In this document: one piece after another, positions 5,126 to 27,820 of the stretch
Layout: every line of letters begins with the position of its first letter
How positions within the stretch are numbered: position 1 is the first letter of the stretch
Source: Rickettsiales bacterium
GTDB lineage: Bacteria; Pseudomonadota; Alphaproteobacteria; Rickettsiales; SXRF01
Assembly (NCBI GenBank): GCA_041396965.1
Contig: JAWKXN010000001.1
Location: 1,897,679-1,961,678, forward strand
DNA length: 64,000 nucleotides
Direction of reading: 5' to 3'
Position numbers and translations under genes: made by a program
Notes under the pieces: generated by a model
Seen by the model: the letters and a program-made list of their open reading frames with translations, nothing else
What the model was told of the DNA's origin: nothing
Database searches by the model: none

Positions 5126-7240
5126 ATGGTGTCAGTAACAGATAATTGGATTGGAATCACTAAAATTATTGGTGTGGTTTTAGCAAAAAATGAAGTTGGT
5201 AACGATTCAATTAATAATGAAGAACCTTACAAGCTATCTTATGCTGGCGGAAACAGCGGGTATAGTTTTGGCTGGAATCAACTTGATCTATCAAAAAATT
5301 CAAAGGCTATTGATCACCTCACTAATATATTAACCAATGCTATAGATCCTAATACTGGAAATCTAGTAGTAGATGATATTAACACGTTCCTTGCTAATTA
5401 CAGAAATGCGTTAATTACACATGGAATCCTTCCAAATTCTGTTATTACCCAAATAGAATTGGCACTGAGTAGTGCATATGGCAAGACATACCTTGCCAGT
5501 TTATTTGAACAGACAACATTGGAGAATATTAATTATGTACTTTCTGAGTTATACAAAGCTGGAGAGAAATATGTTTCTGCTGCTTTAGAAGATCCAAAAA
5601 TACTTATACAACTTACTGATTATCATAATCAGTTCAATATAAGTATTGGTGGAAAAATGGAGCAGTTTCTGCAAGGTAAATCTGTCACACTTACTGGAGG
5701 TACGGTACAAATATCTGGTGATTTAGATATAGATGATATTAGAAATTTTATAACTAGTACAGAATGGGCTACTAGTGGTCATATGGATGATATAAACCGC
5801 CGTTTTGGGAATATAGATGACACAGTGACACAAAATATCCCTATTGATTTAGTGGACAAGACGATAGGCGGAAGTAATAGTAGCTTTAATTTACTTGGAG
5901 CTGTTGGTTCAGCCAATATTACTTTTGGTGGATCAGGTAATGATAAATTATATGGTAGTTATCAAAGTGATGTGCTTTCTGGGGGTTCTGGAAATGATGA
6001 GTTAAGTGGTAATGATGGTGATGATCGTTTATTTGGTCATAGCGGCAATGATTTGCTGATCGGCGGCAAAGGCAATGATATTTTAGACGGCGGTGAAGAT
6101 GCCAGTAAACTAGATATTGATACAATTAGCTACGAAGACAGACTATTTGGTGTTGATGTAAAAATCACAGAACGAGGTGATAACGAAGTTGTTAACCCAT
6201 CGCTTATAATTAGCCGTGAAAATGATATAATATTAAACATAGAAAAAATCAACTTCACCAGCCAGAATGACACTGTGGAAATCAGGTTACTAGCGAGTAC
6301 ACAACTACAAGAAATCCACACCGGAGCGGGTGACGACACTGTGACAATCACCGGCTCGGCGACTGCCTTTAAGCCGGTTATCTACCTAGAGGACGGCAAT
6401 GACGTGTTAGTCTCCGCGCCGAGGGGTAGTATCGTCTATGGTGGCGCGGGCGAGAATCATTACGAGGCGGGAATGGATTATATAATCGCCGATGCCGATG
6501 CTGATGACCATATATATTATGGTGCCCGCCCGATACATGGCGGCGTGAGCTTCAACACCCAAGAATCCCCATGGGCGAAGGGGTTATATGGCGTGCGCTA
6601 CGGCAGGAACGAGGATGACGAGCTGGTTATCGTAACTCCTGACGGCAGACAAACATTCATCGCCAACTTCAACTTTGACCTAGCGGGCGAGCGCACCGCT
6701 GGCTTGCTGGTTGGTGAGGGAACGCTGGAGTTTCACCGCCTGTTGGAATCACCGAAAGGCTTTAATCTTTACGGCACGTTTGAGACGATATTCGGCTATT
6801 ACATGAAGGCGATATTCGGCATCTCGTTCTTTCCGGGCATTGACCCGCTGATACTGGATATGGATGGTGACGGGGTGGAACTGAATGCCCGTCTTGGTGT
6901 CTCCCCTTTTTATGATATTGACGCTGACGGCTTCGCCGAGCAAACGGGCTGGGCACGGGGCGATGACGCTTTCCTCGTGCGTGACCTCAACGCTAACGGG
7001 ATTATTGATGATGTCTCGGAAATGTTCGGCGATGTCACCACCTCCGGCTTTGACGCGCTTAGAGTGCTAGATAGTAATAATGACGGGGTGATTAACGCCG
7101 CTGATAATGAGTTCTCCACCCTGCTATTATGGCAAGACGTAAATGAGAATACGCTAACCGACGCCGGTGAGCTGACAAGCCTTAATGCTGCCAACGACAA
7201 TTACGTTGACATAAGCGTTAACATTGCTATTGCTAGTTAA
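5126..7240 (+). CDS. Orphan toxin module 3: unknown N-terminal domain (weak lysozyme/SLT-like motif) + RTX + backbone with most of the Asp-Pro self-processing module, ANDNY-capped
   Basis: The N-terminal ~250 aa are unique (EEPYKLSYAGGNSGYSFGWNQLDL). RTX repeats present (GGSGNDKLYG...GGKGNDILDGG). Backbone includes GIDPLILDMDGDGVELN and ends at TSLNA-ANDNYVDISVNIAIAS*. Confidence 0.65.
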   Translation: MVSVTDNWIGITKIIGVVLAKNEVGNDSINNEEPYKLSYAGGNSGYSFGWNQLDLSKNSKAIDHLTNILTNAIDPNTGNLVVDDINTFLANYRNALITHGILPNSVITQIELALSSAYGKTYLASLFEQTTLENINYVLSELYKAGEKYVSAALEDPKILIQLTDYHNQFNISIGGKMEQFLQGKSVTLTGGTVQISGDLDIDDIRNFITSTEWATSGHMDDINRRFGNIDDTVTQNIPIDLVDKTIGGSNSSFNLLGAVGSANITFGGSGNDKLYGSYQSDVLSGGSGNDELSGNDGDDRLFGHSGNDLLIGGKGNDILDGGEDASKLDIDTISYEDRLFGVDVKITERGDNEVVNPSLIISRENDIILNIEKINFTSQNDTVEIRLLASTQLQEIHTGAGDDTVTITGSATAFKPVIYLEDGNDVLVSAPRGSIVYGGAGENHYEAGMDYIIADADADDHIYYGARPIHGGVSFNTQESPWAKGLYGVRYGRNEDDELVIVTPDGRQTFIANFNFDLAGERTAGLLVGEGTLEFHRLLESPKGFNLYGTFETIFGYYMKAIFGISFFPGIDPLILDMDGDGVELNARLGVSPFYDIDADGFAEQTGWARGDDAFLVRDLNANGIIDDVSEMFGDVTTSGFDALRVLDSNNDGVINAADNEFSTLLLWQDVNENTLTDAGELTSLNAANDNYVDISVNIAIAS

Positions 7241-7307: not shown

Positions 7308-8282
7308 ATGAAAAAAACGTTTTTTATTTTCGTAGCAATAAATATTTTTTTAGGGCTGTGTTTTTTATCCTTTCAAACATTTGCTAATAAAGTCACGGTC
7401 AGACAACTATTTATTGAGTATTATAATCCTATCAACAGAGAATATTATACGCTTCGGCAAGGATCACCTCAGTTGAAGGAAGAGCCATATAATTATATTT
7501 TGACATCGCTCAAAACTCAGTTAGTTGCTATAGATCAGGAAACAGTTGAGTATGATAATGACCAAGCAGATTATCATGTAATATTTATAGATATACCTTA
7601 TACCTATCAAAAGGAATTTAGAAATAGAAAATTTGAAGTTCCAAATATAGATCCTCCGCTTCCAAAAAATAAATATAAAGATGATAAGAATATAACATCA
7701 TACAGGTTTGTGTCTCCATGGGTACGTGGAACTATTTACATTAAGGGTAAAAAACCGATAGGTGGAACTATTATATTCCCTATCTCTAATATGCTTCGTA
7801 TGAAAGAGTTATATTATGCTTCTCATGGCGATTGGAATAAATTCTCTAAAGGTAATCCAACTAATCTAGATGATGTAACAATGTCTTATGAGAATATTTA
7901 TCAACCAGCACTAGAGAAATACATAAGAATATTCTTAGACAGCTCTAGCGGACGTCCTACAGAGGAGCAAATTGATAAAGTATTCTCTCCTGATGGTATA
8001 CAGACATTATTTTGGGCAAGAATAGCAAGATTAGCTCCTCAAACTACAATAGTTAGATTTACTGGTGGAGGGAAGATAGTAGAGTGTTTAAGAAGATCTA
8101 AGGTTTATTATATTAACATTTATAAATATATATTAGAAGAAATATTAAAAAAAAGTATTACTGAAACTGATAATAATATTATATACAGTATAACCCCACC
8201 TGTAGAATTATTGAAGTCTATACATAACTCCAGTGGTGATTACAATTGCTTTTCAAAATACATTAAGGAGACCTCAAAATGA
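7308..8282 (+). CDS. Putative immunity protein (signal peptide), ~324 aa
   Basis: I prefer the internal start MKKTFFIFVAINIFLGLCFLSFQTFA over the track start at 7224, which reads through the cap repeat. Its stop overlaps the ATG of 8279 (ATGA). Confidence 0.45.
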   Translation: MKKTFFIFVAINIFLGLCFLSFQTFANKVTVRQLFIEYYNPINREYYTLRQGSPQLKEEPYNYILTSLKTQLVAIDQETVEYDNDQADYHVIFIDIPYTYQKEFRNRKFEVPNIDPPLPKNKYKDDKNITSYRFVSPWVRGTIYIKGKKPIGGTIIFPISNMLRMKELYYASHGDWNKFSKGNPTNLDDVTMSYENIYQPALEKYIRIFLDSSSGRPTEEQIDKVFSPDGIQTLFWARIARLAPQTTIVRFTGGGKIVECLRRSKVYYINIYKYILEEILKKSITETDNNIIYSITPPVELLKSIHNSSGDYNCFSKYIKETSK

Positions 8283-9775
8283 CGATTCAAACTTTGTTAA
8301 GCAATATAATTTTTAATGGGTTTTCTTCAATAGATGAAGCGAAGGTACGCCTTGCTATAACAGATTTATATAATGTTTCAACAACTGCACGTACTATGCT
8401 AGATAAAGTGACCCCTCAACAGCAACTGACAATTAATTTTTTGTCTGGTCATTTTCAAGCACATGGAGCCGGAGCATATCAATTAGAAATTGACCCTAAT
8501 TATAACGATAAATTATTCTTCGTCACTCCAACAGGTAAAGCTATACAATACCCTCTTTCTGTTAACATAGCTCACGAGCTTGAACATGCAATAAACGGCA
8601 CCCTTGAAAACCCTAGAACAGACATTAACTTAGCTGGACCAACAGTAATTGCCACTAATGTTATTCATGACGAAATGGGAATAGCACGCAGGTTAACTTA
8701 TGAAGGAGCGGCAGATATAACAGATACCTCAGTTCAAATCAATAAGGATTATACAAATGGAACCGTGATTGATGTAGCTATAGTCATGCTAACAAGTGAA
8801 GGAACTACAAATTATGATGTTATTTCAGCTAATCATATTACAGATAGTAGAGATTTAATAATAGGTAACAATAGTACTAATTTCATATATACTGGTGATG
8901 GTGATGATTTTATATACGGTTACGGTGGAAATGATAACTTAGAAGGAGGAAATGGAAATGATTTTCTCGACGGTGGAGATGGTATAGACACGGCTGAATA
9001 TGATGGGAGTGTTGTAAGTATAGAAATAAGAGTATCATCCCCTAACTCAAGTAATCTTGGTACTATAGAGATAGATGCTGGTTCTGGGAATATTGATCAT
9101 ATAAAAAATATAGAAAGAATTAACTTGAGTGCCTTAGACAATACTATAACTGTCACTCGTAGTTCCAATATACACTATCCAAACAATATCATGATTGATG
9201 GCGGAGCTGGTGAAGACACATTGATATACGCTGGTGCAAGCGTCATAACAGCCATAAAGGAAATATCTTCTGTTAGTGAATCTGATTCACAAAATAAATT
9301 TAGAATGGAGCTTATAGGCAATATAGAAAATATTAAAGGGACATCTGGTAATGATACGTTAGGAATAGTTCTCCTGCCCACCACCAAAGTACAGAAAATC
9401 CACGCCGGTGACGGAGATGATGAGGTATCGGTGGTTGGTTCACTGGTTGCTTTCAAGCCGACGATATATCTTGAGAATGGTGATGATACTCTGGTCGCCG
9501 CTCCTCGTGGGAGTATCGTCTACGGCGGCGCAGGCGCTGACAAGTTTGAACTTGGCAGTGACTATCTGATAGCCGATGCTGACACCAGCGACACCATCAC
9601 TTACGGCGGCAGAACAATCCATGGTGGTATCAACTTCAACACCCAAGAATCCCCATGGGCGAAGGGGATTTATGGTAGTATTATTCCCGCACCCGCCCGT
9701 GGATCCGCTGCTGCAAACGATAACCCAGCCAACGACAATTACATTGACATAAATATTTATGCTAAGGTGGGTTGA
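8279..9775 (+). CDS. Orphan toxin module 4: HExxH metallopeptidase-like N-terminal domain + RTX + backbone, capped with the short ANDNY variant
   Basis: NIAHELEHAING contains HExxH. RTX repeats present (GDGDDFIYGYGGNDNLEGGNGNDFLDGGDGID). Backbone runs to ESPWAKGIYG, then SIIPAPARGSAAANDNP-ANDNYIDINIYAKVG*. Confidence 0.6.
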   Translation: MTIQTLLSNIIFNGFSSIDEAKVRLAITDLYNVSTTARTMLDKVTPQQQLTINFLSGHFQAHGAGAYQLEIDPNYNDKLFFVTPTGKAIQYPLSVNIAHELEHAINGTLENPRTDINLAGPTVIATNVIHDEMGIARRLTYEGAADITDTSVQINKDYTNGTVIDVAIVMLTSEGTTNYDVISANHITDSRDLIIGNNSTNFIYTGDGDDFIYGYGGNDNLEGGNGNDFLDGGDGIDTAEYDGSVVSIEIRVSSPNSSNLGTIEIDAGSGNIDHIKNIERINLSALDNTITVTRSSNIHYPNNIMIDGGAGEDTLIYAGASVITAIKEISSVSESDSQNKFRMELIGNIENIKGTSGNDTLGIVLLPTTKVQKIHAGDGDDEVSVVGSLVAFKPTIYLENGDDTLVAAPRGSIVYGGAGADKFELGSDYLIADADTSDTITYGGRTIHGGINFNTQESPWAKGIYGSIIPAPARGSAAANDNPANDNYIDINIYAKVG

Positions 9776-9779: not shown

Positions 9780-10370
9780 CTATTAACTGAAACAAAATTA
9801 CTGCTAAAAACGGTCGCTGACTTACGGGCTAAGGGTGAGTTGGATGAGGAGAAGTGGGGAAGGATAAGTAAATATATACTAAGTTTCTATGGAGGTGTTT
9901 TTATAATAGCTTCGTCATTTATATTGTATGATTACTTTTATACAAATTTACTAATAAAGTTGCCGTTATTTGCCATAATAATGGCGTTTGTTTTTTTCTT
10001 AACGTTTATGATAATTAATAAAATATTCGTGAAAAAGGTAGTTAACTTTATATTACTATATACGATAGGTAAGAAAGCAATGGCTTCATTAATTAGGTGT
10101 GATTGGACTGAAGGTATGTACTTTGTAAAGCGATATTCTTTAGATTATTCGTACAAAAATAACATTGGAAAGATTTATATAAAGAAAAATGAAAATTGTA
10201 GTGATTTGGGCTTTTTAGGGGCAAACATCAATATATTAACATCCTTAAAAGCAGGAGACAATATTAATATTCTATATTTAGAGAAATACCCTATAACCTC
10301 TACAATTTTTGTTGAGGAGCTAAATGAAAAATATAATTTAAGGAGAGGAACTAATCATGCCACGCTATGA
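9777..10370 (+). CDS. Putative integral-membrane immunity protein
   Basis: Start taken at the conserved cap ATG (MLLTETK...). Hydrophobic segments FYGGVFIIASSFILY and LPLFAIIMAFVFFLTFMII. The 3' end overlaps the start of 10357. Confidence 0.5.
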   Translation: MLLTETKLLLKTVADLRAKGELDEEKWGRISKYILSFYGGVFIIASSFILYDYFYTNLLIKLPLFAIIMAFVFFLTFMIINKIFVKKVVNFILLYTIGKKAMASLIRCDWTEGMYFVKRYSLDYSYKNNIGKIYIKKNENCSDLGFLGANINILTSLKAGDNINILYLEKYPITSTIFVEELNEKYNLRRGTNHATL

Positions 10371-12687
10371 AGATTACGGAACTTATATTAGACGAGATGA
10401 TGCAATAGTCGGAGCTTTCGCTAGTACGATTAATCCTCTTATAGATGATTGGTTATCAAACGCTAAAGTAAAAGTGTTAGCCCAAGAGGTTGTGGAGTCA
10501 ACAAAATTTTTCTTAAAAACAGGTCTTCCTGGAGCAGTAATTGGAGCCTCAGCACAAGCTATTGATGTAACTATTAATAGCGATGGTGACATATCGCTAA
10601 TATATAATACATCAAAATTAAACGTAGGTAATATTTTAGTTGATACTGGAGCAACTTTTTTAATAGCAGCAGGTATTTTAGGTCTGTTAGCGGCGGCAGA
10701 TGTTGCGATTGGAGTTGTTGCTTTAGTAGGGGTTTCTATTGGTGCCAGTTTGTTATGGAGTGGTATAACCGGTGGATTTAATAGTGTTCAGGATATTATA
10801 ACCGATAGCAATGACATCCAAGTCCGCATATTCACGGATGGTGGCACGCATGTGGCTAGTTATATTTATCCGGAGGGGCAGGATTATCCGGACAGTCCGG
10901 CGGAAGCGGTTCAAGGGTTGTTATTTAACTTCGCCCATGCCATCCCTAACAATAACTTCACCATCAACATCAGCGGTGGCAGTGATAGCGGCGCTGAGTT
11001 TAAGATAGACTCCCAACCCTATCAGAATATCGCCGGCAGGGTTGGTGTTTCTGTGGATAATATGATGAGCGTAATCCACTCACCGGAGTATGATAACTCC
11101 AACTACACCGCCAGCAACGCCGTTATGGGTAAGGTGTATTATTACCCAACTAATTATAAACTAAAATTAGTGGTTCCAGTTGTAATTGATGGTGTTACTC
11201 AGAATATATTGGTTAATAATATTTATGATTCCACCGGCAAGATAGCGGGCATAGATTCCAGCCAGTCAACTGACTCCAACCTGATATTAGCGGCAGCCGG
11301 TAATAGCAATGTTTTTGGCACTACCGGCAAGGATTTGATATTGGGCAGTAGCGGCAATAATACCATCAACGGCATTGGTGGTAGCGATATAATCTTCGGC
11401 TATGGTGGTAACGATATAATACATGGCGGAGTTGGGGTAGATAATATATTGGTCGGCGGCAGCGGTGATGACCAGTTGTTCGGACATGGCGGCATTGGTG
11501 GAACTAGCAGCTTTTACGGAGATGGTGGTAATGACATAATAGTTGGCAGCGATGGTAACGACCTGATTCGTGGTGGCGCTGATAACGACACACTGACTGG
11601 TGGTATCGGCAACGACATTATGGATGGTGGCGCTGGTTATGACACTATTAAATACGAAGCCAGTTTTTTTGGTTTAATCGGGCGAGATATAACATTATCA
11701 GAAAGAGCGACAGTACCGGCGGTCTCTAATGCTAAAACCAGCATAGAGGTTGACTTGATGATTGACGTGGAACGGGTTGAGGCGACTTCCGCCAGCGACA
11801 ACATAGGAATAGTTCTCCTGCCCACCACCAAAGTACAGGAGATACACGCCGGTGACGGAGATGATGAGGTATCGGTGGTTGGTTCACTGGTTGCTTTCAA
11901 GCCGACGATATATCTTGAGAATGGCGACGATACTCTGCTCGCTGCCCCTCGTGGGAGTATCGTCTATGGTGGGTCTGGAGCGGATACGTTTGAGCTGGGC
12001 AGTGACTATCTGATAGCCGACGCTGACACCGGCGACACCATCACTTACGGCGGTAGAACAATCCATGGTGGGATTAACTTCAACACCCAAGAATCCCCAT
12101 GGGCAAAGGGGTTATATGGCGTACGTTACGGCAGGAACGAGGATGGTGAACTGGTAATAGTCACTCCTGACGGCAGACAGACTTTCGTTGCTAACTTCAA
12201 TTTTGACCTGGCGGGTGAGCGCACCGCCGGCTTGCTGGTTGGCGAGGGCAGTTCAGAGTTTTACCGCCTGTTGGATTCACCGAAAGGCTTTAATCTTTAT
12301 GATACTTTTGAGGCGATATTTGGCTATTACATGAAGGCGATATCTGGCATATCGTTTTTTCCGGGCATTGACCCGCTGATACTGGACATGGATGGTGACG
12401 GGGTGGAGCTTAACGCCCGTCTTGGTGTCTCACCTTTTTATGATATTGACGCTGACGGCTTTGCCGAGCAAACGGGCTGGGCACGGGGCGATGACGCTTT
12501 CCTCGTGCGTGACCTCAACGCTAACGGGATTATTGATGACGCCTCCGAGATGTTTGTATTATCCCCCGCCCCTGAGCGGGGGTCTCATCCCGTAGTCACA
12601 AAAGCCGTCAATGACAACGTAGCAACACCCACCGCCACCAACGACAATCACCTTGACTTAAGCATTAACACTGCTATTGCTAGTTAA
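10357..12687 (+). CDS. Orphan toxin module 5: glycine/alanine-rich membrane-inserting (pore-former-like) N-terminal domain + RTX + backbone truncated inside the self-processing module, ANDNY-type cap
   Basis: AGGAG SD lies upstream of the ATG. The hydrophobic stretch GATFLIAAGILGLLAAADVAIGVVALVGVSIGASLLWSGITGG is homologous to the N-terminus of 16054..23694. A long RTX block follows. Includes GIDPLILDMDGDG and ends ...IIDDASEMF + VLSPAPERGS...TNDNHLDLSINTAIAS*. Confidence 0.65.
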   Translation: MPRYEDYGTYIRRDDAIVGAFASTINPLIDDWLSNAKVKVLAQEVVESTKFFLKTGLPGAVIGASAQAIDVTINSDGDISLIYNTSKLNVGNILVDTGATFLIAAGILGLLAAADVAIGVVALVGVSIGASLLWSGITGGFNSVQDIITDSNDIQVRIFTDGGTHVASYIYPEGQDYPDSPAEAVQGLLFNFAHAIPNNNFTINISGGSDSGAEFKIDSQPYQNIAGRVGVSVDNMMSVIHSPEYDNSNYTASNAVMGKVYYYPTNYKLKLVVPVVIDGVTQNILVNNIYDSTGKIAGIDSSQSTDSNLILAAAGNSNVFGTTGKDLILGSSGNNTINGIGGSDIIFGYGGNDIIHGGVGVDNILVGGSGDDQLFGHGGIGGTSSFYGDGGNDIIVGSDGNDLIRGGADNDTLTGGIGNDIMDGGAGYDTIKYEASFFGLIGRDITLSERATVPAVSNAKTSIEVDLMIDVERVEATSASDNIGIVLLPTTKVQEIHAGDGDDEVSVVGSLVAFKPTIYLENGDDTLLAAPRGSIVYGGSGADTFELGSDYLIADADTGDTITYGGRTIHGGINFNTQESPWAKGLYGVRYGRNEDGELVIVTPDGRQTFVANFNFDLAGERTAGLLVGEGSSEFYRLLDSPKGFNLYDTFEAIFGYYMKAISGISFFPGIDPLILDMDGDGVELNARLGVSPFYDIDADGFAEQTGWARGDDAFLVRDLNANGIIDDASEMFVLSPAPERGSHPVVTKAVNDNVATPTATNDNHLDLSINTAIAS

Positions 12688-12722: not shown

Positions 12723-13226
12723 AAGAAGATACTATATTGGATAGGAAGACACTGGATATTATCACTTTTTTTATTAATTGGTAGTGTTTCTTCAGGGCTT
12801 AACTATTCTGGATTTTGTATTGAGCAGGGTAGATGGCTTAGCGATGAGGAGTTTTTATTGGCTATGTTGGGTTACACAGAAGGAGATACTATACGCAATG
12901 AAGAAAGAAAAAAATTCCTTAGAGAAAACCCTGAATGCTGCCGTTTGTACAGAGGAGATACAGGTATGGTGTCAAACATAGACTGGTTGAATAGAATAAC
13001 AGGTTCTATTTATGCATCCGGTGAAGTAGACTCTAAACTTCCTGATACAGAAATATGGTATGGAACAAACCCACCTCTAGATTACTATAGAAGATACATA
13101 ACTCTAGATACTTGCGGGAAGTCATATAGTAAATTTAGCGATAAAATTACAAAACAAGACAGTGAATTATCTTACGAAATATATTTAAGAAAGAAACAAA
13201 AAGGAGTTGCTCATGACAGTTTATAA
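12720..13226 (+). CDS. Putative immunity protein (N-terminal signal/anchor)
   Basis: Starts at the cap ATG. N-terminus has HWILSLFLLIGSVSSG. The 3' end overlaps the start of toxin module 6. Confidence 0.45.
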   Translation: MKKILYWIGRHWILSLFLLIGSVSSGLNYSGFCIEQGRWLSDEEFLLAMLGYTEGDTIRNEERKKFLRENPECCRLYRGDTGMVSNIDWLNRITGSIYASGEVDSKLPDTEIWYGTNPPLDYYRRYITLDTCGKSYSKFSDKITKQDSELSYEIYLRKKQKGVAHDSL

Positions 13227-15633
13227 TTGGAATCAGCTTGGCATTGAAGAAGTTACCAATCTCTACCTTTACGGTTCGTTAAACACTCCGGATAATTTGG
13301 CAAGCGATACATTGATTCGTCCAAAGGTAGTGCGTCAAAATGATGTTTACATGTTTGAAGACGGAACACCTCTTGCATCCATTACTTTAGATACTGTGTC
13401 CTTTATGTCCAGCGGTCCTGGATATTTTGCAAAAGCCTCTAATTCGGCATTAATTCAGCAATTTTTTAATAACACTACGTTGCTTTCTACTAGTGGTGTT
13501 CGCCAAGAATTTAGCCTCGCAATGATAAAAAGTATTCTAGGTTTAAACGATATTCAAAGTAATATTTCTATTCAACAATATGCTTATGATGTTGGAAGCG
13601 CAGATTTTTTACAAAGAAGTTATATCTATAATACTTCTGGGTTTACAATTACGGATAATCATTCTCCAGCCGATAGAAAAATTAAATTTATCATTGAAGC
13701 GGATGGTACAAGACATATACAAAATATGCGAATTCTTCCACTAAGTGATAATTTTGACTTTGACTCATCTGATAAATCAACTGTTCTTGCAAACACTGTT
13801 TTGCAGCCAAATATAGACCCCTCTAATATTGGAAGAAGAGCAAATATTATATTTGACGAAGCAAGTAAAGCCAATGTCCCACTAATAACAGACTATTATA
13901 AAGCTGATTATGATAATGATGTTGCCGCTACGAACAGCTGGTTTGATGCCGCCGCTGGTCTTGCTAAACTTTCTACACTTAGTAGTTCCCTTATTTCTGA
14001 TCTATGGGATTCTGGTGTCACTAAATTCCTTACAGCAGATAACCGCCCTATAATATATGGCACGAATGATGGAGACACATTTAATGCCAGTATATTTAAT
14101 GATTCCAGCCTTCCAACACTTGCTCCCTACGCAAAAAATGGGATTGTATTTATCGGCGGAAAAGGTGATGATACTTTCGTAAATAGCACTCATAATAGCG
14201 ATAATAATGATATATTTGATGGTGGAGAAGGTGTTGATACTGTTAAGTATAGTTCATTTTTATTTGGTAAAGATATTGCAATATCAGAACGTTCTTCCAT
14301 TCCAGAGTTGCCGAGTCCAAACGCTAGTATTAATACCAGTATAGAAGTTGACTTAATTGTTAATATAGAAAAAATAGAAGCAACCAGCAATAGCGACAAC
14401 ATAGGAATAGTTCTCCTGCCCACCACCAAAGTACAGGAGATACACGCCGGTGACGGAGATGATGAGGTATCGGTGGTTGGTTCACTGGTTGCTTTCAAGC
14501 CGACGATATATCTTGAGAATGGTGATGATACTCTGGTCGCTGCCCCTCGTGGCTCCATCGTCTATGGCGGGTCTGGAGCGGATACGTTTGAGCTGGGCAG
14601 TGACTATCTGATAGCCGACGCTGACACCAGCGACACCATCACTTACGGCGGCAGAACAATCCATGGTGGGATTAACTTCAACACCCAAGAATCACCATGG
14701 GCGAAGGGGATTTATGGCGTGCGTTACGGCCGGAATGAGGATGACGAGCTGGTTATCGTAACTCCTGATGGCAGACAGACATTCATCGCTAACTTTAACT
14801 TTGACCTAGCGGGTGAGCGCACCGCTGGCTTGCTGGTTGGCGAGGGAACGCTGGAGTTTCACCGCCTGTTGGAATCACCGAAAGGCTTTAACCTTTACGG
14901 CACGTTTGAGGCGATATTCGGCTATTACATGAAGGCGATATTCGGCATCACCTTCTTTCCGGGCATTGACCCGCTGATACTGGATATGGATGGTGACGGG
15001 GTGGAACTGAACGCCCGTCTTGGTGTCTCGCCTTTTTATGATATTGACGCTGACGGTTTCGCTGAGCAAACGGGCTGGGCACGGGGCGATGATGCTTTTC
15101 TCGTGCGTGACTTAAACGCCAACGGGATTATTGATGATGTCTCGGAGATGTTCGGCGATGTATCAACCACTGGCTTTGACGCGCTTAGAGTGCTAGATAG
15201 TAATAATGACGGGGTGATTGACGCCGCTGATAATGAGTTCTCCACCCTGCTATTATGGCAAGACGTAAATGAGAATATGCTAACAGACGCCGGTGAGCTG
15301 ACAAGCCTTAATGCCGCCGGAATTACCTCCATTGATTTAAGCAGCACGCCAAGCGGTGAGCTGGTCGCCGGTAACTATGTTGACTCTGTGGGCAGCTTCA
15401 CCCTAAGTGATGGCAGCACGCGTGAGATAGCCGACGTTACCTTCCGCGCCAATCAACGTGATACTATCTGGCTGGGTGATGATACGATAGACGCGGTGGC
15501 GGCAACCCTGCCCGAACTTAAAGGATTCGGCACACTAACCGACCTGAGAATAGCCATGACCGATAGCGCGAGCTTGAAGGGGGCAAATGATAATTACGTT
15601 GACATAAGCGTTAACACTGCTATTGCTAGTTAA
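13213..15633 (+). CDS. Orphan toxin module 6: unknown ~330-aa N-terminal domain + backbone with a complete self-processing module, ANDNY-capped
   Basis: I prefer ATG 13213 (AAGGAG 6 nt upstream) over the TTG at 13207. The backbone from HAGDGDDEVSVVG to MTDSASLKG is collinear with the main gene. It ends with G-ANDNYVDISVNTAIAS*. Confidence 0.65.
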   Translation: MTVYNWNQLGIEEVTNLYLYGSLNTPDNLASDTLIRPKVVRQNDVYMFEDGTPLASITLDTVSFMSSGPGYFAKASNSALIQQFFNNTTLLSTSGVRQEFSLAMIKSILGLNDIQSNISIQQYAYDVGSADFLQRSYIYNTSGFTITDNHSPADRKIKFIIEADGTRHIQNMRILPLSDNFDFDSSDKSTVLANTVLQPNIDPSNIGRRANIIFDEASKANVPLITDYYKADYDNDVAATNSWFDAAAGLAKLSTLSSSLISDLWDSGVTKFLTADNRPIIYGTNDGDTFNASIFNDSSLPTLAPYAKNGIVFIGGKGDDTFVNSTHNSDNNDIFDGGEGVDTVKYSSFLFGKDIAISERSSIPELPSPNASINTSIEVDLIVNIEKIEATSNSDNIGIVLLPTTKVQEIHAGDGDDEVSVVGSLVAFKPTIYLENGDDTLVAAPRGSIVYGGSGADTFELGSDYLIADADTSDTITYGGRTIHGGINFNTQESPWAKGIYGVRYGRNEDDELVIVTPDGRQTFIANFNFDLAGERTAGLLVGEGTLEFHRLLESPKGFNLYGTFEAIFGYYMKAIFGITFFPGIDPLILDMDGDGVELNARLGVSPFYDIDADGFAEQTGWARGDDAFLVRDLNANGIIDDVSEMFGDVSTTGFDALRVLDSNNDGVIDAADNEFSTLLLWQDVNENMLTDAGELTSLNAAGITSIDLSSTPSGELVAGNYVDSVGSFTLSDGSTREIADVTFRANQRDTIWLGDDTIDAVAATLPELKGFGTLTDLRIAMTDSASLKGANDNYVDISVNTAIAS
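14443..15584 (+). repeat. 1.14-kb direct repeat of main-gene segment 17356..18497 (constant offset 2913 bp)
   Basis: Collinear by eye. The last ~300 bp (about 15277..15584 vs 18190..18497) show no mismatch I could find. Confidence 0.85.
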
Positions 15634-15669
15634 TAAATTATTTACTCTAAACTGTGGATGGGTGAGATG
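15583..15669 (+). repeat. ANDNY cap element, long form
   Basis: gcaaatgataattacgttgacataagcgttaacactgctattgctagttaataaattatttactctaaactgtggatgggtgagatg. Confidence 0.85.
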
Positions 15670-15683
15670 AAAAAAGCAACAAA

Positions 15684-16061
15684 ATGGTACAGACGATGAC
15701 AGAAAAAATATTCTTGATTTCTATTCAGATTATAGGAGTCCTATTACTATTATTCTTAACTTTTTATATCCCCTATCGCTTGGCTCTTAGAAATAAAGAA
15801 AAAAGAACAATCTTTATTAAAAATGCAGTAAGAACTGAAGGGACTATAGAAGGAATAGTTTTAGCGAATATAAAGCCTATACATTTTTCCTTGAAATATT
15901 TTTTTACCGATAAGCACGGTGGAATATACAAGGGAACTGATGATATAGGGCTATCTATATTCAAATACAAAAAAGGTCAAAAAATTACTATTTATTATGA
16001 CCCTAATAAACCAGATAAAAATATTATAGAGCACAAAGGAAAGAAGGATAGTTATGTCTAA
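15684..16061 (+). CDS. Putative membrane immunity protein of the expressed toxin
   Basis: One clear TM segment (IFLISIQIIGVLLLLFLTFYIPY). Its stop overlaps the main-gene ATG by 8 nt. Confidence 0.5.
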   Translation: MVQTMTEKIFLISIQIIGVLLLLFLTFYIPYRLALRNKEKRTIFIKNAVRTEGTIEGIVLANIKPIHFSLKYFFTDKHGGIYKGTDDIGLSIFKYKKGQKITIYYDPNKPDKNIIEHKGKKDSYV

Positions 16062-19000
16062 CATATTTGGATATTATAAAGCAGAAAATATGCCTAGAGT
16101 GACAAGCAGTGGTACAATCTCTGGGTTAAATGCATATATCGCAGCATTAGAAACTGGTCTCATAGAAGTATTAGAGTATAATAAAACTTTACCGGGCATA
16201 GCTTTACGATTTGCTTTGATCGGTGATGGTATAACAGGAGCTTCGAGCCAAACCTTAAACATAATATATAATGACGATGAAACGTTTAGCATAGATGGTT
16301 ATCTTAACAATGCTAAATTTGCGCTAACTCAAACTGCTGCTTCTACCGCTATAGCTGGAGCTATATTTCTTATAACTGGCACCTCTGTCGGTATAGCCGG
16401 AGTTATCGGTATATCCGCCGCTACCTCTTTGGTGTTTTCCGTAATAGATGGTGTAACAGATAGCTTCTATGGAATGGGAAGACCAGTTAACGTTAAATTC
16501 TACGATCAGTCTGGAGAACATGTTTCTGGTTTTTTATATCCTGATGGGTTGGACGGTTCTGCCAATCAAAAAACGACTGCCGTTCGCAATTTAATTTTTG
16601 CCGCTGGTTCAGAAATAGCCAATGGCGGCACCATTGAGATTGAGACCTCATATTTTGACACATTGCTGGATAGCTCATACACTCTTTACGATGGTTCTTT
16701 TACTAATTTTATTGTAGGAGCAAGCGCCGCAACCAGCGTTACGGATTTTTTAACAACTGGTGATGGTAAAAATCTTGAAGCGCACGCCTTCGCGCCAAAT
16801 AATCCCTCAACCGCTAAAGAATATTACTTCTTTGAGGATAATGAAGTGGCTCTTGATATACCGGTATTTATTAACGGTGTTAAAGAGGTAATAACTGTCA
16901 ATAATATTTATGAAGGGAATACAAGTAACGCCCCTGATTCAATTTATATCGGAGATGGTACAGGCAAAAACTTAATAATAAACACTGGTTTCTCACCGAC
17001 TCTTGTCGGTAATGAAAATGATGATTTAATACTTGGTGGCGGTGACGCTGAGGTGTTAAACGGAAAAGAAGGAGACGATATTTTAATCGCCGGTGGTGGC
17101 AATGACTTTCTCATCGGTGGCGAAGGCAACGATTATATAGATGGTGGTGATGGAACCGATACGCTGCAATATCTTCATAGCAATAGTTTCTTTAACAGAA
17201 CAATAAATATAAAGGAAGGTGTCGGACATGTTCCTTCCTCATTATTTCGTTTTAGTGAAACAGATTCAATATTAAATGTAGAAGAAATAGATTTTGCTGA
17301 TTCAGCGGACAACATCAATATTACATTACTCGCTAACACTGCCGTTCAGAAAATCCACGCCGGTGACGGAGACGATGAGGTATCAGTTGTTGGTTCACTG
17401 GTGGGGACATTCCCGAGAATCTTCCTTGAGAATGGCGACGATACTCTGCTCGCCGCTCCTCGTGGGAGTATCGTCTATGGCGGTAGCGGTGCTGACAAGT
17501 TTGAACTTGGCAGTGACTATCTGATAGCCGACGCTGACACCAGCGACACCATCACTTACGGCGGCAGAACAATCCATGGCGGGATTAACTTCAACACCCA
17601 AGAATCGCCATGGGCAAAGGGGTTGTATGGCGTGCGTTACGGCCGGAATGACGCTGACGAGCTGGTTATCGTCACTCCTGATGGCAGACAGACTTTCGTT
17701 GCTAACTTCAATTTTGACCTGGCGGGTGAGCGCACCGCCGGCTTGCTGGTTGGCGAGGGCAGTCTGGAGTTTTACCGCCTGTTGGAATCCCCGAAAGGCT
17801 TTAATCTTTACGGCACGTTTGAGGCGATATTCGGCTATTACATGAAGGCGATATTCGGCATCACCTTCTTTCCGGGCATTGACCCGCTGATACTGGACAT
17901 GGATGGTGACGGGGTGGAACTGAACGCCCGTCTTGGTGTCTCGCCTTTTTATGATATTGACGCTGACGGATTCGCCGAGCAAACAGGCTGGGCACGGGGC
18001 GATGACGCTTTCCTCGTGCGTGACCTCAACGCTAACGGGATTATTGATGATGTCTCAGAGATGTTCGGCGATGTCACCACCACGGGCTTTGACGCGCTTA
18101 GAGTGCTAGATAGTAATAATGACGGAGTGATTGACGCCGCTGATAATGAGTTCTCCACCCTGCTATTATGGCAAGACGTAAATGAGAATATGCTAACCGA
18201 CGCCGGTGAGCTGACAAGCCTTAATGCCGCCGGAATTACCTCCATTGATTTAAGCAGCACGCCAAGCGGTGAGCTGGTCGCCGGTAACTATGTTGACTCT
18301 GTGGGCAGCTTCACCCTAAGTGATGGCAGCACGCGTGAGATAGCCGACGTTACCTTCCGCGCCAATCAACGTGATACTATCTGGCTGGGTGATGATACGA
18401 TAGACGCGGTGGCGGCAACCCTGCCCGAACTTAAAGGATTCGGCACACTAACCGACCTGAGAATAGCCATGACCGATAGCGCGAGCTTGAAGGGGGCGGT
18501 ACAGACCGCGCTTACTCAGCTGGGAACGATTGACCTTGGGGCGATGATTAGCGCGATAACTCCGGTACTTAATGAATGGCGGGACGCGGTGCCCGCTCCT
18601 GCGGACGTACCGGGTATGGTGGCGCGCTCGGATGTGCCGATTCTCGCGATAAATGATATTAACGGCGCGCAGGTGATTGATTTTGCCTATCAAGTCAGTG
18701 ACGAGCAGGGTTCGTACTGGAAGCTGGCTAGTGGTGAGGCAGTGAAGGATTCCGGCGGGGTGGTGATTGACCGTCCGCAAGTCGCTGATGTTATGGCGCA
18801 GACTCCAACAAGCGGCACGTGGCAGACATTTTCCGGTGAGCATATCCAGTTTCTGGAGCGTTATTTAAGTGTTGAGTTGCCGCTTGGGGTGGATAATTTA
18901 GCCGGCAGTACGGCGATTGCCGCCGCCGGTGATATGCTTAACGATATGTGGGATATGCTTGGTGGCATAGCGGTGCGGCTTGCGGCGCAAGGACCACTTG

Positions 19001-22000
19001 CCTCATATTTCGCCGGAGTTGAGTATAACGCCGCTGATGACCGTTTTGTGGCGACCACTGACCAATCACTAACCCCGACTATGGAAGCGATTTTCACAGC
19101 GGCTCCGGCGGGTGACGCGACAAGCTGGCTTGCCGCGTGGAAGCCGATAATCAATGTATTCCTGCAAAGCTTTGATCGTGGGAGTGACGGGCTTAAGGTG
19201 AGTTATGGTTTTCTGTTCAGTCATATCGTGGCGGCCTATGAGAATGTCGGGCTTTCGGCGACACTCACGCAAGCGGCGGATGCTTTTGACGTGCCGGTGG
19301 ATTTAATCCGCGCCAATAGTGATGACATAAACGGAGATGGCGAGGCTAACCTTATCTATCTTGGCGCGGGAGACCAGATAGCGCGCGGCGGACATGGACC
19401 GGATAATTATATTGTCGGCAGGAATTTCGGACATGACATAATAGATGACCTTGAGAACCCGTTAAATGGCAGCCCAGACTGGCTGCGTTTCGCTCATCTT
19501 AACTCTGATGAGGTGACTATGGAGCGCAGCGGGATTGACCTTATAATCAAGGTAAACGGCACTGCTGATGAGCTGAAAATAATCGGACAATTCGCTAGGC
19601 AGCTTTCCGGCTTTGGTATTGGTGGGCTGGACGCTGATCGTGGTGTACTAGAGATAATTTTCGCTAATGGTGAGGTTTGGGACAAAATTGACATAGCGAA
19701 AGCGGTAGAAAGACACACTGATGGTGATGACCTAATTATCGGTACTGATACCATAGATTTTTTTGACGGCGGACTTGGCAATGACCGGCTTATTGGTGGC
19801 GCGGAAGGTGATATTTATCAGTTCGGGCTTGGTGATGGTCAGGACATAATAGAAGATAATATGAGCTATATAACTATGGATGCTCCTGATGTAGTTGTTT
19901 TTAAGGATGGCATAACTTTTGATATGGTGTCATTTACCCGTGATGGTTACTCACAGGATCTGGTGGTCAAAATAAACGGAACTAATGATCAGATAACCAT
20001 AAAAAACCAGTTTACTGGTACTTATACTGGTGTTTATGGTTTGCATTTCCTTACTCGTATAGAAAATTTTATATTTAGTGATGGCACTAACATATCGTGG
20101 GACGATGTTCAGGACATAATCCTAGAGTCCAACCAAACGGATGGTGATGACGAGATTTACGGCTTTACCCGTACGGATATAATTGATGGTGGTGCCGGTG
20201 ATGATTTTATGTCCGGTGGTGATGAAGGCGATCTGTACATAATGGGACTTGGTTATGGGAAGGATGTTATTGAGGACGGTAGAAGTAACGTATTAAGTGG
20301 TGATAATGATACTATACAATTCTTGGAAGGAGTTAATCCTAACGAGGTTATCATGTCACGACCAACAGTTGATGACCTAAAGCTTACCCTTATAGATGGA
20401 AGTAGTGTTCTGATAAAAGGACATTTCTACAATATAGACCAATTTACTTTCAGCCAAGATCGCATAGAATATTTTACCTTTGCTGATGGAACAGAGTGGG
20501 ATTTTAACTTTATTAAGCAACGAATGCTAGAAATCAGCTCAACTGATGGTGACGATATTATTTATGGTTATTACTTTACTGATGATGTGATCAATGCCGG
20601 AGCTGGCAATGATATAGTAAATTCTTTGAGCGGCAACTCCACCATTACCGGAGGTCTGGGTGATGATCTACTTACTGGAGGAGGAGCCGATACTTACATT
20701 TATAATCAAGGTGATGGTGTTGATACCATAGATGAGGCAGTTTTTGCCGGAACTGACCAAATAATATTTAGCGGAGACGCACTTACTTCTACTAACGTCG
20801 TTCTTACTCGCTCCTCTGATTTTAACTCCGCAACGCTTACTTTTGGTGGAGTGGATGATACTATAATACTTCCTAATCAATTTTATAATTATAACGCGGG
20901 GATTGAATATATAGTATTTTCTGACGGAGTGACTTGGACTAAACGCGACCTGCAGGATAAATATCTATCAGATAACTCAACTGATGGTGATGATATTATA
21001 ACAGGATTTGGTAGTAACATAACTCATTATGAAAATGACATAATTACTGGTGGGCTTGGCAATGATCAGATGAATGGTCTAGTTGGTGACGATATTTATA
21101 TCCATAATCAGGGCGATGGTGTTGATACAATAATTGAGGATCAGTATAGTGGGAACGATACGGTAAGATTAACCGGAGCGGCTCTTACCTCAACCAATGT
21201 GACAGTTACTCGCTCCGCAGATTTTACCAGCGCTACGCTTAGCTTTGCCGGAGTATCTGATCAGATAATACTTAAAAATCAATTTGGCTCGCATGGTGCC
21301 GGTGTAGAGTATATAGAGTTTTCTGATGGCGTGACTTGGACAAAAGATGATTTACAAATAAAATATTTAAGTGACGCATCTACTGATGGAGATGACATTA
21401 TAGTTGGTTTTGGCTCCGAGTTTAATCATAGAGTAGATGATATAATTACCGGTGGGCTTGGTAATGATGTGATGGATGGTCTTAATGGTGATGATACTTA
21501 CATTTATAATCAAGGTGATGGTGTTGATGATATATATGAAGGTCTATTTAATGGATTAGACACATTAAAGTTATATGGTGATCTACTTACTATGGATAAC
21601 GCTTTAATCACCTATTCAGAAAATTATACTAAAGTGACATTAAGCTTTAATGGCATAGATGATAAAATAATCATGAGTGGAGAACAATATCCATGGCCAG
21701 GTCTAGAAAGAATAGAATTCTCTGATGGAAAAATATGGAACACACCGAACTTTTTTGGTGGTGCCGCTTATGTTGATAATCAAGAGACATTTAACGGTAC
21801 CGTAAATAATGATGTATTTATGAGCTTTGGAGCAAATGATACATTATATGGCAATGCTGGTGATGATTATTTTGAGGGTGGAGCTGGCGCGGATACGATA
21901 GATGGTGGAACTGGTGTGGATACTGTATCTTATTTTGGCTCTATTTCTGGAGTTGCCGTTAATCTTAGCACCAATGTCAATAGTGGTGGCGATGCGCAGG

Positions 22001-23694
22001 GTGACTTGCTCTATAATATTGAAAATATTATAGGTTCTAGTTTTGCTGACAATCTATCTGGTAATCCTAGTAATAATGTTATTCATGGTGGTCTAGGTAA
22101 CGATACTCTATCTGGGGCAGTTGGCAACGACACTCTATTTGGCGATGGTGGCAATGACGTTCTTGATGGCGGTGCTGGTGGTGATTACATGGATGGTGGT
22201 GCTGGTGTTGACACTGTGTCTTATGCTTCGTCTGCGGTTGTTGTTGATATAGATCTTAGCCGTACCGGTCTGCAGGGCTGGGGAGCATCTGGTGATACGA
22301 TAGTTAACGTGGAGAATATTATCGGCTCTGACTTTAGTGATCGCCTAGCAACTTCGGTGGTTGGTGGCACTATTCATGGCGGTTTGGGTAATGACATTAT
22401 CAATGGTAGAGACGGTAGTGATACTCTTTACGGCGAGGATGGCAATGATACTATCTATGCTGGTGGTGGTGATGACATTATTGATGGCGGCGCTGGCGAT
22501 GACACCATCTATAGTAATGGCGGCACTAACCTACTGATTGGTGGTGCTGGCGCGGATTACATGAATGGTTTTGGTGGAACCGCGATTGCTAGTTACGCTG
22601 ATTCAATAGCAGCAGTAAATATTATTCTCTCCACTAATGTAAATACCGGTGGTGACGCACAGGGTGATAGCCTTGTTGGCGTACCGAACATTATCGGATC
22701 AGACTTTGATGACACTATTATCGGTGATGGCTTTGCTAACAGCCTGTATGGTGGCTTGGGAGATGACTTGCTTGCCGGTAGAGGCTTTGGTGGCAACCAT
22801 ATGGATGGTGGTGATGGTGTTGACACTGTATCTTACGCTGAATCATCACAAGTGGTAAGCATCAATCTTGATAGCACTGGCTCACAAGGCTGGGGAGCGT
22901 CTGGTGATACTCTGGTCAGTATAGAAAATCTTATCGGCTCAGCTTATAATGATACTCTCGCCGCAAAAAGCAGTGGTAGTGTCATCCATGCTGGCAGCGG
23001 TAACGACACCATCAATGGTAGAGCTGGCAGTGATACTATTTATGGCGAGAATGGTAATGATACTATCTACGCGGGAGCTGGCAATGATACTGTCTATGGT
23101 GGTGCTGGCGATGACCTTATTTACAGTCAAGCTGGAGATAATCTGATAGTTGGTGGCGCGGGAGCTGATACCATTAACGGTTTTACTGGAATATCCACCG
23201 TATCTTACGCTGATTCATCTGCGGCGGTAAACATCAATCTTGCCACTAACGCCAACACAGGTGGCGACGCGCAGGGTGACGTTCTGCAAGGTGTAACTAA
23301 CATCATCGGCTCTGACTTCGCCGATAACCTCACCGGTGATTATAAAAATAATACTATAACCGGTGGCAGCGGTGTTGACACCATAACCGGTGGTAGTGGC
23401 TTTGATATATTCAAATATCTGGCAGATACCGATTCCGGCACTGGCGCGGGCAATCGTGATATAATCACTGACTTCAGCCACGCGCAAGGCGATAAGATTG
23501 ACCTGTCAGCCTTCGCCGGTGACTTCATATTCATGGGAACAAATAACTTCTCCGCCACGGCAAATGAGGTTAATTACTCACAATCCGGTGGTAACACAAT
23601 AATCGCCGTAGACTCCGACGCTAACGGACTCACCGACTTCGAGATACAACTCGCAGGGTTGCATGCGATGGTGGCTGGCGATTTCTTATTGTAG
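16054..23694 (+). CDS. Full-length 2546-aa RTX type I secretion substrate with a pore-former-like N-terminal domain, self-processing module, tandem HCBP-related repeats, a large RTX block and a C-terminal secretion signal
   Basis: The N-terminus is homologous to 10357..12687. Many GGxGxD nonapeptides. Contains [13 protein letters not shown]. The C-terminus ...[19 protein letters not shown] is typical of T1SS substrates. A hairpin terminator follows. Confidence 0.9.
   Translation: [2546 protein letters not shown]
17881..18420 (+). other. Putative Ca2+-dependent Asp-Pro self-processing module (FrpC/ApxIVA clip-and-link type)
   Basis: [17 protein letters not shown]...[40 protein letters not shown]...[23 protein letters not shown]...LWQDVNEN...[17 protein letters not shown] matches my recollection of the SPM consensus. 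Asp codon 17881, Pro codon 17884. The extent is approximate. Confidence 0.6.
19476..21750 (+). repeat. Six tandem ~125-aa haemolysin-type calcium-binding-related repeats within the main gene
   Basis: Recurrent pattern D.(I/L).F......(D/T).V...R.G.DL.I...G..D.I.I.N.F......IE.I.F(A/S)DG..W. Units 4 and 5 are the most similar pair. Confidence 0.7.
21800..23415 (+). repeat. C-terminal RTX nonapeptide region organised as alternating higher-order units
   Basis: Five units of the form VSY..S...V.(I/L)....(NVN(S/T)GGDAQGD or G.[9 protein letters not shown])...(I/V)(E/P/T)N(I/L)IGS.(F/Y).D.L, separated by GGxGxD runs. Confidence 0.75.
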
Positions 23695-27723: not shown

Positions 27724-27820
27724 TATTTTTATGACCAACAATTACAATACTCAAATATGCCATACCGAAAATCATCGGCAGCCAGAGAATACTATGTAAA
27801 TAACCATAAAAAGACAAACG

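Follow-up and report, generated by a model that had tools for sequence, protein, structure and literature searches.

We analysed a 64,000-nt stretch of DNA from a Rickettsiales bacterium (assembly GCA_041396965.1, contig JAWKXN010000001.1, positions 1,897,679 to 1,961,678), which we refer to as the window; positions are counted from its first nucleotide, its GC content is 39.6%, and counts of the uptake sequences DUS and USS in it are zero. The window encodes a full-length RTX protein, which we will call the main protein, and this protein includes a self-processing module (SPM) similar to that of FrpC from Neisseria meningitidis. From the N-terminus to the C-terminus, the main protein has a variable head, a constant region, the SPM, a further conserved region, a carrier made of repeats, and a C-terminal target domain for a type I secretion system (T1SS). 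Its last residues, ...AGDFLL, follow the pattern of Asp and then hydrophobic residues. Upstream of the main gene are six N-terminal cassettes of it that are truncated at the 3' end (orphan cassettes), with a small open reading frame (ORF) between one cassette and the next (Table 1).

Table 1. Features of the SPM locus and the type I secretion genes in the window.
Feature	Position	Strand	Remarks
Orphan cassette 1	323..1414	+	Consists of a lipase-like head alone; 50% identity with cassette 2
Orphan cassette 2	2103..4487	+	Lipase class 3 / Mbeg1-like, GHSLG at aa 129; ends before Asp-Pro
Orphan cassette 3	5126..7240	+	Breaks off after 116 aa of the SPM; Asp-Pro codons 6842-6847
Orphan cassette 4	8279..9775	+	HELEH at aa 99; ends at main aa 526, before Asp-Pro
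Orphan cassette 5	10357..12687	+	Head 49% identical to main head; ends 61 aa into the SPM; Asp-Pro at 12370-12375
Orphan cassette 6	13207..15633	+	Own head, then constant region including all of the SPM (as far as main aa 815); Asp-Pro codons 14968-14973
Junction element, from orphan end to next small ORF	15583..15673	+	Copies at 4437-4527, 7190-7280, 12638-12727; variants at 1373-1414, 9713-9775
Small ORF, candidate cognate immunity or partner gene	15684..16061	+	125 aa; one transmembrane segment; DUF3592; overlaps start of main gene by 8 nt
Full-length SPM-bearing RTX protein (main gene)	16054..23694	+	2546 aa; NCBI MEZ5691991.1, 'MAG: calcium-binding protein [Rickettsiales bacterium]'
Variable N-terminal head, aa 1-430	16054..17343	+	Hydrophobic helical hairpin aa 89-131 (16318-16446); short RTX block aa ~307-383 (16972-17202)
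Constant pre-SPM region, aa 431-609	17344..17880	+	88-93% DNA identity with cassettes 4, 5 and 6; with cassette 3 from aa 507
Predicted scissile bond, Asp610-Pro611	17881..17886	+	GAC CCG; codons 610 (17881-17883) and 611 (17884-17886)
SPM, aa 611-776	17884..18381	+	From alignment to FrpC 415-591
Post-SPM region, aa 777-1100	18382..19353	+	~320 residues conserved together with the SPM in alphaproteobacterial homologues
Carrier: HCBP_related repeats, then RTX nonapeptide blocks	19351..23433	+	HCBP_related x5, HemolysinCabind x10
Type I secretion C-terminal target domain, TIGR03661	23458..23661	+	18.9 bits (cut-off 17.6)
T1SS ABC transporter (566 aa) and HlyD-family adaptor (475 aa)	47434..50564	-	Only T1SS pair in the window

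When residues 550-849 of the main protein were compared with all PDB chains (using phmmer), the top match was the SPM of FrpC (6sjw_A, E = 6.2e-32). The P415A precursor of the same module matched with E = 8e-32 (6SJX), and the next match after the FrpC SPM had E = 0.5. The alignment to 6SJW begins exactly at the proline of Asp610-Pro611 and spans residues 1-172 of the 179 in the chain; in a pairwise alignment, main aa 611-772 are 45% identical to the FrpC SPM over 161 residues. An earlier note on this DNA, made from its letters, had proposed a FrpC-type SPM beginning at 17881, and had named the lack of a significant alignment to characterised SPMs as an outcome that would tell against it. The strong alignment to FrpC, together with the retained residues and the predicted fold that are described below, bears the proposal out. 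The start was also placed correctly, while the proposed end (18420) was slightly generous, as the alignment ends the module near 18381. The peptide around the predicted cut is TFFPGID/PLILDMDGDGVELN, where the slash marks the Asp-Pro bond, and the other backbone peptides that had been quoted (DADGFAEQTGWARGDDAFLVRDLNANGIIDD, FGD, GFDALRVLDSNNDGVIDAADNEF, and AGELTSLNAAGITSIDL) are all in frame within the main ORF.

We took the functional residues of FrpC from Kuban 2020 (PMC7078468) and mapped them one by one onto the module in the window. D414-P415 of FrpC corresponds to D610-P611, and the residues that follow (LILDMDGDG) fit the PL(A/I)LD(L/M)DGDG strand. All four calcium sites are retained: the split site (D419/D421/D423/G424 with D456 in FrpC; D615/D617/D619/G620 with D651 in the window), two EF-hand-like sites (D462-E474, which is D657/N659/N661/G662/E669; and D499-D510, which is D686/N688/D690/D697), and the fourth site (D521-E532, which is D708/N710/N712/E719). 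The fourth site contains a D525N substitution, which is conservative for position 5 of an EF-hand. The T-shaped tryptophan pair (W451/W519) is present as W646/W706, and the tryptophan column is nearly invariant in an alignment of 39 homologues. Finally, D673 and D765 are the counterparts of D478 and D579 in FrpC. There, cleavage is lost with D579A and reduced with D478A, and the pair has been modelled as a transient fifth calcium site (Kuban 2020, PMC7078468).

The predicted structure points the same way. The AlphaFold2 model of aa 605-800, with the 39-sequence alignment as input, has a mean pLDDT of 88.6 and a pTM of 0.84. When we compared the predicted module to the PDB with Foldseek, it matched only 6SJX and 6SJW (E = 1e-16, TM-scores of 0.72-0.77), and the third match had E = 0.4. 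The SPM fold, which has two perpendicular beta-sheets and a helix-turn-helix, was published as novel (Kuban 2020, PMC7078468), so the Foldseek match is specific. Judged by homology and by its modelled fold, residues 611-776 are a genuine FrpC-type SPM. As a domain, the module is ordinary: it is an added member of a known family (Pfam PF26745, 'SPM'). Our profile scans with Pfam, NCBIfam, and PADLOC, in which the Pfam set did not include PF26745, gave no name to the module or to the heads. We also considered whether the Asp-Pro pair might belong to an aspartyl autoprotease of the Rhs type ('DPxGL'), and rejected this, as Rhs/YD repeats are absent and the SPM is matched over its full length.

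The SPM family is large, and only part of it has the Asp-Pro bond. Using HMMER, we found 22,703 proteins with E <= 1e-3 and 1,207 with E <= 1e-30 among 1.84 billion cluster representatives. Among the 150 top-scoring proteins, the conserved proline is directly preceded by Asp in 60 instances of the motif and by A, S, P, T, or L in 149 instances. Because Asp is absent from many members of the family, its presence at residue 610 of the main protein is informative and not automatic. Proteins with a single Asp-Pro motif (n = 39) have it at a median residue of 610 and have a median length of 2165 aa. Among the multi-copy proteins listed, the Asp-Pro copy is the N-proximal one. Copies with Ala, Ser, Pro, or Thr are found in tandem near the C-termini of proteins of 4000-7700 aa (for example P0117, P0130, and P0145), and some of these giants also carry one N-proximal Asp-Pro copy. 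By its sequence and its location, the module in the window is a typical N-proximal Asp-Pro copy.

Within the main protein, D610-P611 is the sole Asp-Pro dipeptide, although the protein contains 290 Asp and 45 Pro in its 2546 residues and about 5.1 such dipeptides are expected from its composition (p ~ 0.03 by shuffling). This may reflect the avoidance of labile bonds elsewhere in the chain. The 16-residue motif FFPGID/PLILDMDGDG recurs, with the codons GAC-CCG, in cassettes 3, 5, and 6 (at 6842, 12370, and 14968, exactly where the earlier note had them), and a six-frame translation of the window contains no further copies. The Asp-Pro pair is the same in all four copies. Between the main gene and cassette 6, a comparison of 615 nt (205 codons) shows 16 nucleotide differences, which amount to 13 synonymous codons and one amino acid change. 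As the changes are almost exclusively synonymous, the copies of the SPM diverged under purifying selection as working genes.

Two observations concern the distribution of the family. The SPM is found on 145 plasmid records, where the annotation is mostly 'calcium-binding protein' and once 'iron-regulated protein frpC'. It is also found outside of RTX proteins, for example in a cyanobacterium (Pleurocapsa) and in a Clostridium, and it has dockerin, LysM, and EF-hand domains among its neighbours. Going by these sequence matches, the SPM is not confined to RTX proteins, contrary to what has been stated.

The cassettes define which part of the main protein varies. The constant region begins 180 residues before the Asp-Pro bond, and upstream of aa 431 we found no DNA homology between the main gene and the other cassettes. 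The earlier note had the module sitting between a variable warhead and the RTX carrier. It is right that the variable N-terminus lies on one side of the module and the C-terminal RTX repeats and T1SS domain on the other, but the module is not at the junction of variable and constant sequence, and 180 aa of constant sequence would stay on the clipped fragment. Going by these alignments, the part of the main protein that would be clipped off is the polymorphic part. At the DNA level, the shared region ends at differing positions of the main gene (aa 526/527, 671, 726, and 815). Cassettes 3, 5, and 6 contain part or all of the SPM, and the other half of the six (cassettes 1, 2, and 4) stop before the Asp-Pro codons. 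We infer that the SPM-coding DNA is part of the repeat that would let a stored head recombine onto the carrier.

All of the orphan cassettes read in frame into a junction element, which starts with GCNAAYGAYAAY (encoding 'A-N-D-N') and ends with ...AIAS and a stop codon. This 12-mer is found on the + strand of the window at five of the junctions and nowhere else, and the sixth junction (12638) has an ACC variant. Cassettes 2, 4, and 5 have a longer form of the junction (IIPAPARGS...). The 'AANDN' start is also found at most of the orphan ends in an array of unrelated sequence (locus L015, described below). The junction element may be the promoter or 5' end of an incoming immunity-toxin module, or it may be a recombination site. 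It contains a weak match to a sigma-70 promoter (TTAACA-17-TAAATT), on which we do not rely, as there are 75 such matches versus 50 expected in this AT-rich DNA. The array extends past the start of the window: a seventh cassette, R3D71_10000 (P0035, 278 aa), which lies two genes 5' of cassette 1, is 69% identical to part of the constant region. Also, the small ORF at 1405-2100 has a homologue in the incomplete ORF at 3-323.

The heads themselves are diverse. Cassettes 1 and 2 have heads like lipase class 3 or Mbeg1, with a GHSLG elbow. Cassette 4 has a HELEH motif and, in a relaxed Pfam scan, sub-threshold matches to Peptidase_M91 and M85 (E ~ 0.05). A hydrophobic hairpin of two helices is present in the heads of the main gene and cassette 5, and the heads of cassettes 3 and 6 have no detectable family. 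For the main head, a search of 5.8 billion proteins found one homologue only, the matches to PDB sequences are via the RTX block only, and AlphaFold with three sequences gave a pLDDT of 35.7 and no usable fold.

Each of the cassettes has a small ORF (125-352 aa) directly 5' of it, with a gap of +2 to +23 nt or an overlap of 4-20 nt, and all six of the small upstream ORFs begin with a hydrophobic segment (signal-like or transmembrane). The heads of cassettes 1 and 2 share 50% identity, and the ORFs upstream of these heads share 49%, a co-variation that would be expected of cognate pairs. The small ORFs did not match any known immunity family in profile scans or in a search of PDB sequences. When they were concatenated and compared to PDB sequences, nothing was matched, FrpD (5EDF) and Smlt3025 (6PDK) included, a comparison at the sequence level only.

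A search of genome contigs found no close relative of the main gene (the best was 42% identical), and the same search gave 13 alphaproteobacterial loci for comparison. A small ORF on the same strand abuts or overlaps the start of 11 of the 13 Asp-Pro SPM genes in the loci that we examined, and 4-nt overlaps are common. A Sphingobium locus (L011) has a 1124-aa orphan with its own Asp-Pro SPM located 5' of the full-length gene and, further 5', a lipase-like head and a small ORF that resemble, as judged by eye, the pair at cassettes 1 and 2 of the window. In L015, an 11.5-kb metagenomic contig with 39% GC, small ORFs alternate with cassettes, four of which have SPM matches; one of the cassettes has an N-terminus similar to the type VI effector TseH, which is just below the Pfam cut-off (26.3 vs 27 bits; E = 8e-6). 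Sphingopyxis plasmid pDB-1 encodes, in this order, a T1SS ABC transporter, an adaptor, an acyltransferase, a small ORF, and a protein that is longer than 5000 aa and has its Asp-Pro at residue 812. Across 46 Asp-Pro proteins, all 1035 of the 1035 pairs of SPMs align, with a median identity of 49%; the N-terminal 300-aa segments align for 41 pairs (4%). The heads of relatives include Peptidase_M10 and Lipase_3, and a short RTX block always lies between the head and the SPM. A Filomicrobium homologue (L003, 6929-20794) has two Asp-Pro motifs in one ORF, at residue 345 and at residue 1053, which looks like the in-frame fusion of an orphan, and from its sequence this protein could release two fragments.

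The biochemistry of FrpC suggests how the main protein would work. The SPM of FrpC is unfolded below ~100 nM calcium and has an affinity for calcium of ~150 uM. Its cooperative folding twists the Asp-Pro amide, and the side chain of the Asp then attacks and the chain is cut. This leaves an aspartic anhydride, which is either hydrolysed or captured by lysines. The FrpC module tolerates any protein N-terminal to it, and the measured half-times of SPMs range from minutes to hours. Translocation of ~600 residues by a T1SS takes seconds to a minute, so the head should be outside of the cell before the chain is cut.

By analogy, the 268-kDa main protein would remain unfolded in the low-calcium cytosol and would be exported by a T1SS, with its C-terminus first; the pair at 47434..50564 may serve it. 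Once exported, the RTX blocks would bind calcium and fold, followed by the SPM. Folding would strain the Asp610-Pro611 amide, the side chain of Asp610 would attack its own carbonyl, and the chain would break. The predicted products are a 64.7-kDa N-terminal fragment (the head, the short RTX block, and the 180-aa constant segment) that ends in an aspartic anhydride, and a 203-kDa SPM-RTX carrier. Hydrolysis of the anhydride would yield a free effector, while its capture by a nearby lysine would tether the effector covalently to a surface protein.

Overall, we consider it likely that the locus encodes an SPM and uses it for the calcium-triggered release or tethering of a polymorphic head, alternatives of which are stored as the upstream cassettes. 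We base this reading on the homology, the conserved residues, the predicted fold, and the layout of the cassettes, from which we infer cleavage, cross-linking, the route of export, toxicity, and immunity. Two traits of a polymorphic system are visible in the window: hypervariable heads are joined to a constant region from aa 431 onward, and the orphan cassettes adjoin the full-length gene.

Several observations weigh against this reading. Cleavage of the main protein is argued from the biochemistry of FrpC, to which the module is just 45% identical. (In vitro, SPM cleavage was reported first for FrpC and ApxIVA; reports on FrpA and on homologues from Alysiella and Kingella that are 60-98% identical to FrpC followed.) Compared to FrpC, the module has an 8-residue deletion in the loop at 479-490, beside D478; Met713 replaces G526, the position-6 Gly of the fourth EF-hand-like site, which is the sole deviation among the key positions of the calcium sites; and three of the four 'narrow port' residues (FrpC 579-582) are substituted. 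None of the heads significantly matches a characterised toxin: the lipase/Mbeg1 similarity is marginal, the HExxH match has E ~ 0.05, and the main head has none. Also, the heads of the main gene and cassette 5 are related (49% identity), but their upstream ORFs have no detectable similarity. Finally, the T1SS pair is 24 kb away and adjoins a different, HlyC-activated RTX toxin.

Some of these points would fit a clip-and-link adhesin, as has been proposed for FrpC and FrpD. The released fragment would then be bonded to the surface of a host or partner, the small envelope ORFs would encode surface receptors like FrpD that keep the fragment on the producing cell, and the polymorphism would reflect partner or kin specificity or antigenic variation instead of toxicity. 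According to the literature, residues 1-414 of FrpC are covalently linked to epithelial surface proteins and bind FrpD, the lipoprotein encoded upstream, with a Kd of 0.2 nM. In the window, the small ORF ahead of each cassette likewise has a signal or anchor segment, and no head significantly matches a toxin family. On the other hand, some heads have catalytic-looking motifs (GHSLG and HELEH), and relatives have Peptidase_M10, Lipase_3, and TseH-like domains. Truncated cassettes that are stacked, each beside a small gene that co-varies, are the hallmark of polymorphic toxin-immunity systems. FrpC mutants have no adhesion-linked virulence defect in the cited models, and Bayer-Santos 2019 argued that FrpC and FrpD are an effector and its immunity protein. 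We therefore view the adhesin as unlikely.

More doubtful still is that the module binds calcium in a purely structural role and does not cleave. Most of the sampled motif instances carry A, S, P, or T instead of Asp before the proline, many of these Asp-less relatives are in tandem near C-termini and are presumed not to cleave, and the module in the window differs from that of FrpC by the loop deletion and by G526M. However, the Asp-Pro pair, D673, and D765 are all present, and changing the equivalents of the latter two in FrpC (D478 and D579) to Ala reduces or abolishes cleavage. Residue 610 is exactly the typical position of Asp-Pro copies. Furthermore, Asp-Pro is the same in the four copies, with changes in the module that are almost all synonymous. 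We consider a non-cleaving module to be quite improbable.

The least credible alternative, to which we give hardly any weight, is that the locus delivers ordinary exoenzymes (a lipase or a metalloprotease) for nutrition or against a eukaryotic host, with upstream ORFs that encode periplasmic inhibitors of the AprI/Inh type and do not serve as immunity to attacking neighbours: the clipped fragment would combine an enzyme-like domain with a short RTX block, as in serralysin and RTX lipases, and the metagenome-assembled genome has a Rickettsiales label, which fits as this order has many bacteria that associate with eukaryotes, but arrays of displaced alleles with private partner genes are not normal for housekeeping exoenzymes, two of the heads are membrane-hairpin proteins and not enzymes, and the repertoire of the window (LuxI/R, PgaBC-like, GGDEF) is in the style of a free-living bacterium.

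Returning to the calcium-triggered release of a polymorphic head, the closest known system is FrpC/FrpA of Neisseria (6SJW, 6SJX). The window's module shares with it the Asp-Pro bond at the N-terminal edge, the four calcium sites, the tryptophan pair, the equivalents of D478 and D579, and the predicted fold. In both, the SPM is N-proximal in an RTX protein of the type I secretion class (residue 414 in FrpC, 610 in the window), the N-terminus is variable, and a gene for a small envelope protein lies directly upstream (frpD in N. meningitidis). The window differs in its unrelated N-terminal region, its lineage-specific 180-aa constant segment, and its stack of six or more displaced cassettes. 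ApxIVA of Actinobacillus pleuropneumoniae, which we compared by description only, is per the literature the second RTX protein whose SPM has been shown experimentally to cleave, and deletion of its SPM attenuates virulence. In contrast to the window, ApxIVA belongs to a host-pathogen setting, and the papers that we read report no cassette array for it.

The arrangement in the window also resembles CdiA-CT/CdiI, Rhs, and MafB/MafI, in which a hypervariable effector is joined to a conserved region, has a private small gene, is accompanied by silent arrays of truncated cassettes, and is often released by autoproteolysis. The polarity in the window is reversed, with an N-terminal effector and with the partner gene and 3'-truncated orphans upstream, which fits with the C-terminal location of the T1SS signal. 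Also, polymorphic toxins are released by HINT, the Rhs aspartyl protease, PrsW, or caspase-like peptidases, whereas release in the window is predicted to be by a calcium-triggered Asp-Pro module.

The cysteine protease domain (CPD) of MARTX toxins similarly provides built-in autoprocessing that frees effectors from a T1SS-exported RTX carrier when a small ligand, specific to one compartment, is encountered. However, the CPD is triggered by host-cytosolic InsP6 and cuts after Leu, while the SPM has no nucleophile beyond the substrate Asp, has extracellular calcium as its trigger, and leaves a reactive anhydride. Lastly, Smlt3024 from Stenotrophomonas maltophilia is homologous to the N-terminal domains of many RTX proteins, and its immunity protein, Smlt3025, is structurally similar to FrpD (Bayer-Santos 2019). 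This pair differs from the window in that it uses another secretion system (X-T4SS) and has no SPM, and the search of PDB sequences detected no similarity of the window's small ORFs to Smlt3025 or FrpD.

These comparisons raise the question of whether RTX proteins with the SPM, including FrpC and ApxIVA, form a class of type I-secreted polymorphic effectors of reversed polarity, with an upstream immunity gene, stored heads, and release or stapling by calcium-dependent Asp-Pro chemistry via the anhydride. We are evenly divided on this. As far as we know, this delivery chemistry is not used by any known polymorphic toxin.

FrpC mutants lack a clear phenotype, and the function of FrpC has been unclear since the 1990s; the working model in the field is adhesion. 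The SPM was described in 2004, its structure was solved in 2020, and it has been engineered as 'NeissLock'. A 2017 review gave the function as adhesion and attributed the N-terminal variability of FrpC 'possibly to immune pressure', while Bayer-Santos 2019 proposed that FrpC is a T1SS antibacterial effector and that FrpD is its immunity protein. In the part of the 2012 polymorphic-toxin census that was available to us, the SPM is not among the releasing peptidases and there is no T1SS polymorphic class. A 2025 survey describes toxin domains that are N-terminally fused to RTX repeats. We found no paper that links the SPM to cassette arrays, immunity genes, or a role in toxin release; as only open-access papers were covered, this is weak evidence.

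The place of the SPM in giant RTX proteins has long been puzzling. The locus in the window and the related arrays in other bacteria have the genomic look of a toxin-immunity system. In genomic terms, this locus backs a hypothesis that was raised in passing by Bayer-Santos 2019 and makes it directly testable, and it provides an unusually clear genomic argument about the role of a biochemical activity that has been an orphan for 20 years. On the practical side, the module is a 45%-identical and naturally shorter-looped variant of the SPM for protein-ligation engineering.

The rest of the window contains several other systems on the - strand. The T1SS genes are next to a second, classical RTX toxin (690 aa), which lies at 54193-57254 together with an acyltransferase of the HlyC family and, between toxin and acyltransferase, a 156-aa ORF. 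A LuxI-type autoinducer synthase and a LuxR-type regulator, at 51604-53129, separate the T1SS genes from this second toxin; quorum control of the toxins in the window is possible. The window also encodes a PgaB-like deacetylase/glycosyl hydrolase and a PgaC-like glycosyltransferase for a biofilm polysaccharide (37927-41684) and, directly 3' of the large RTX gene, a MacAB-like ABC efflux set (24752-27741). The Pga-like and MacAB-like sets are unusual baggage for a genome with a Rickettsiales label.

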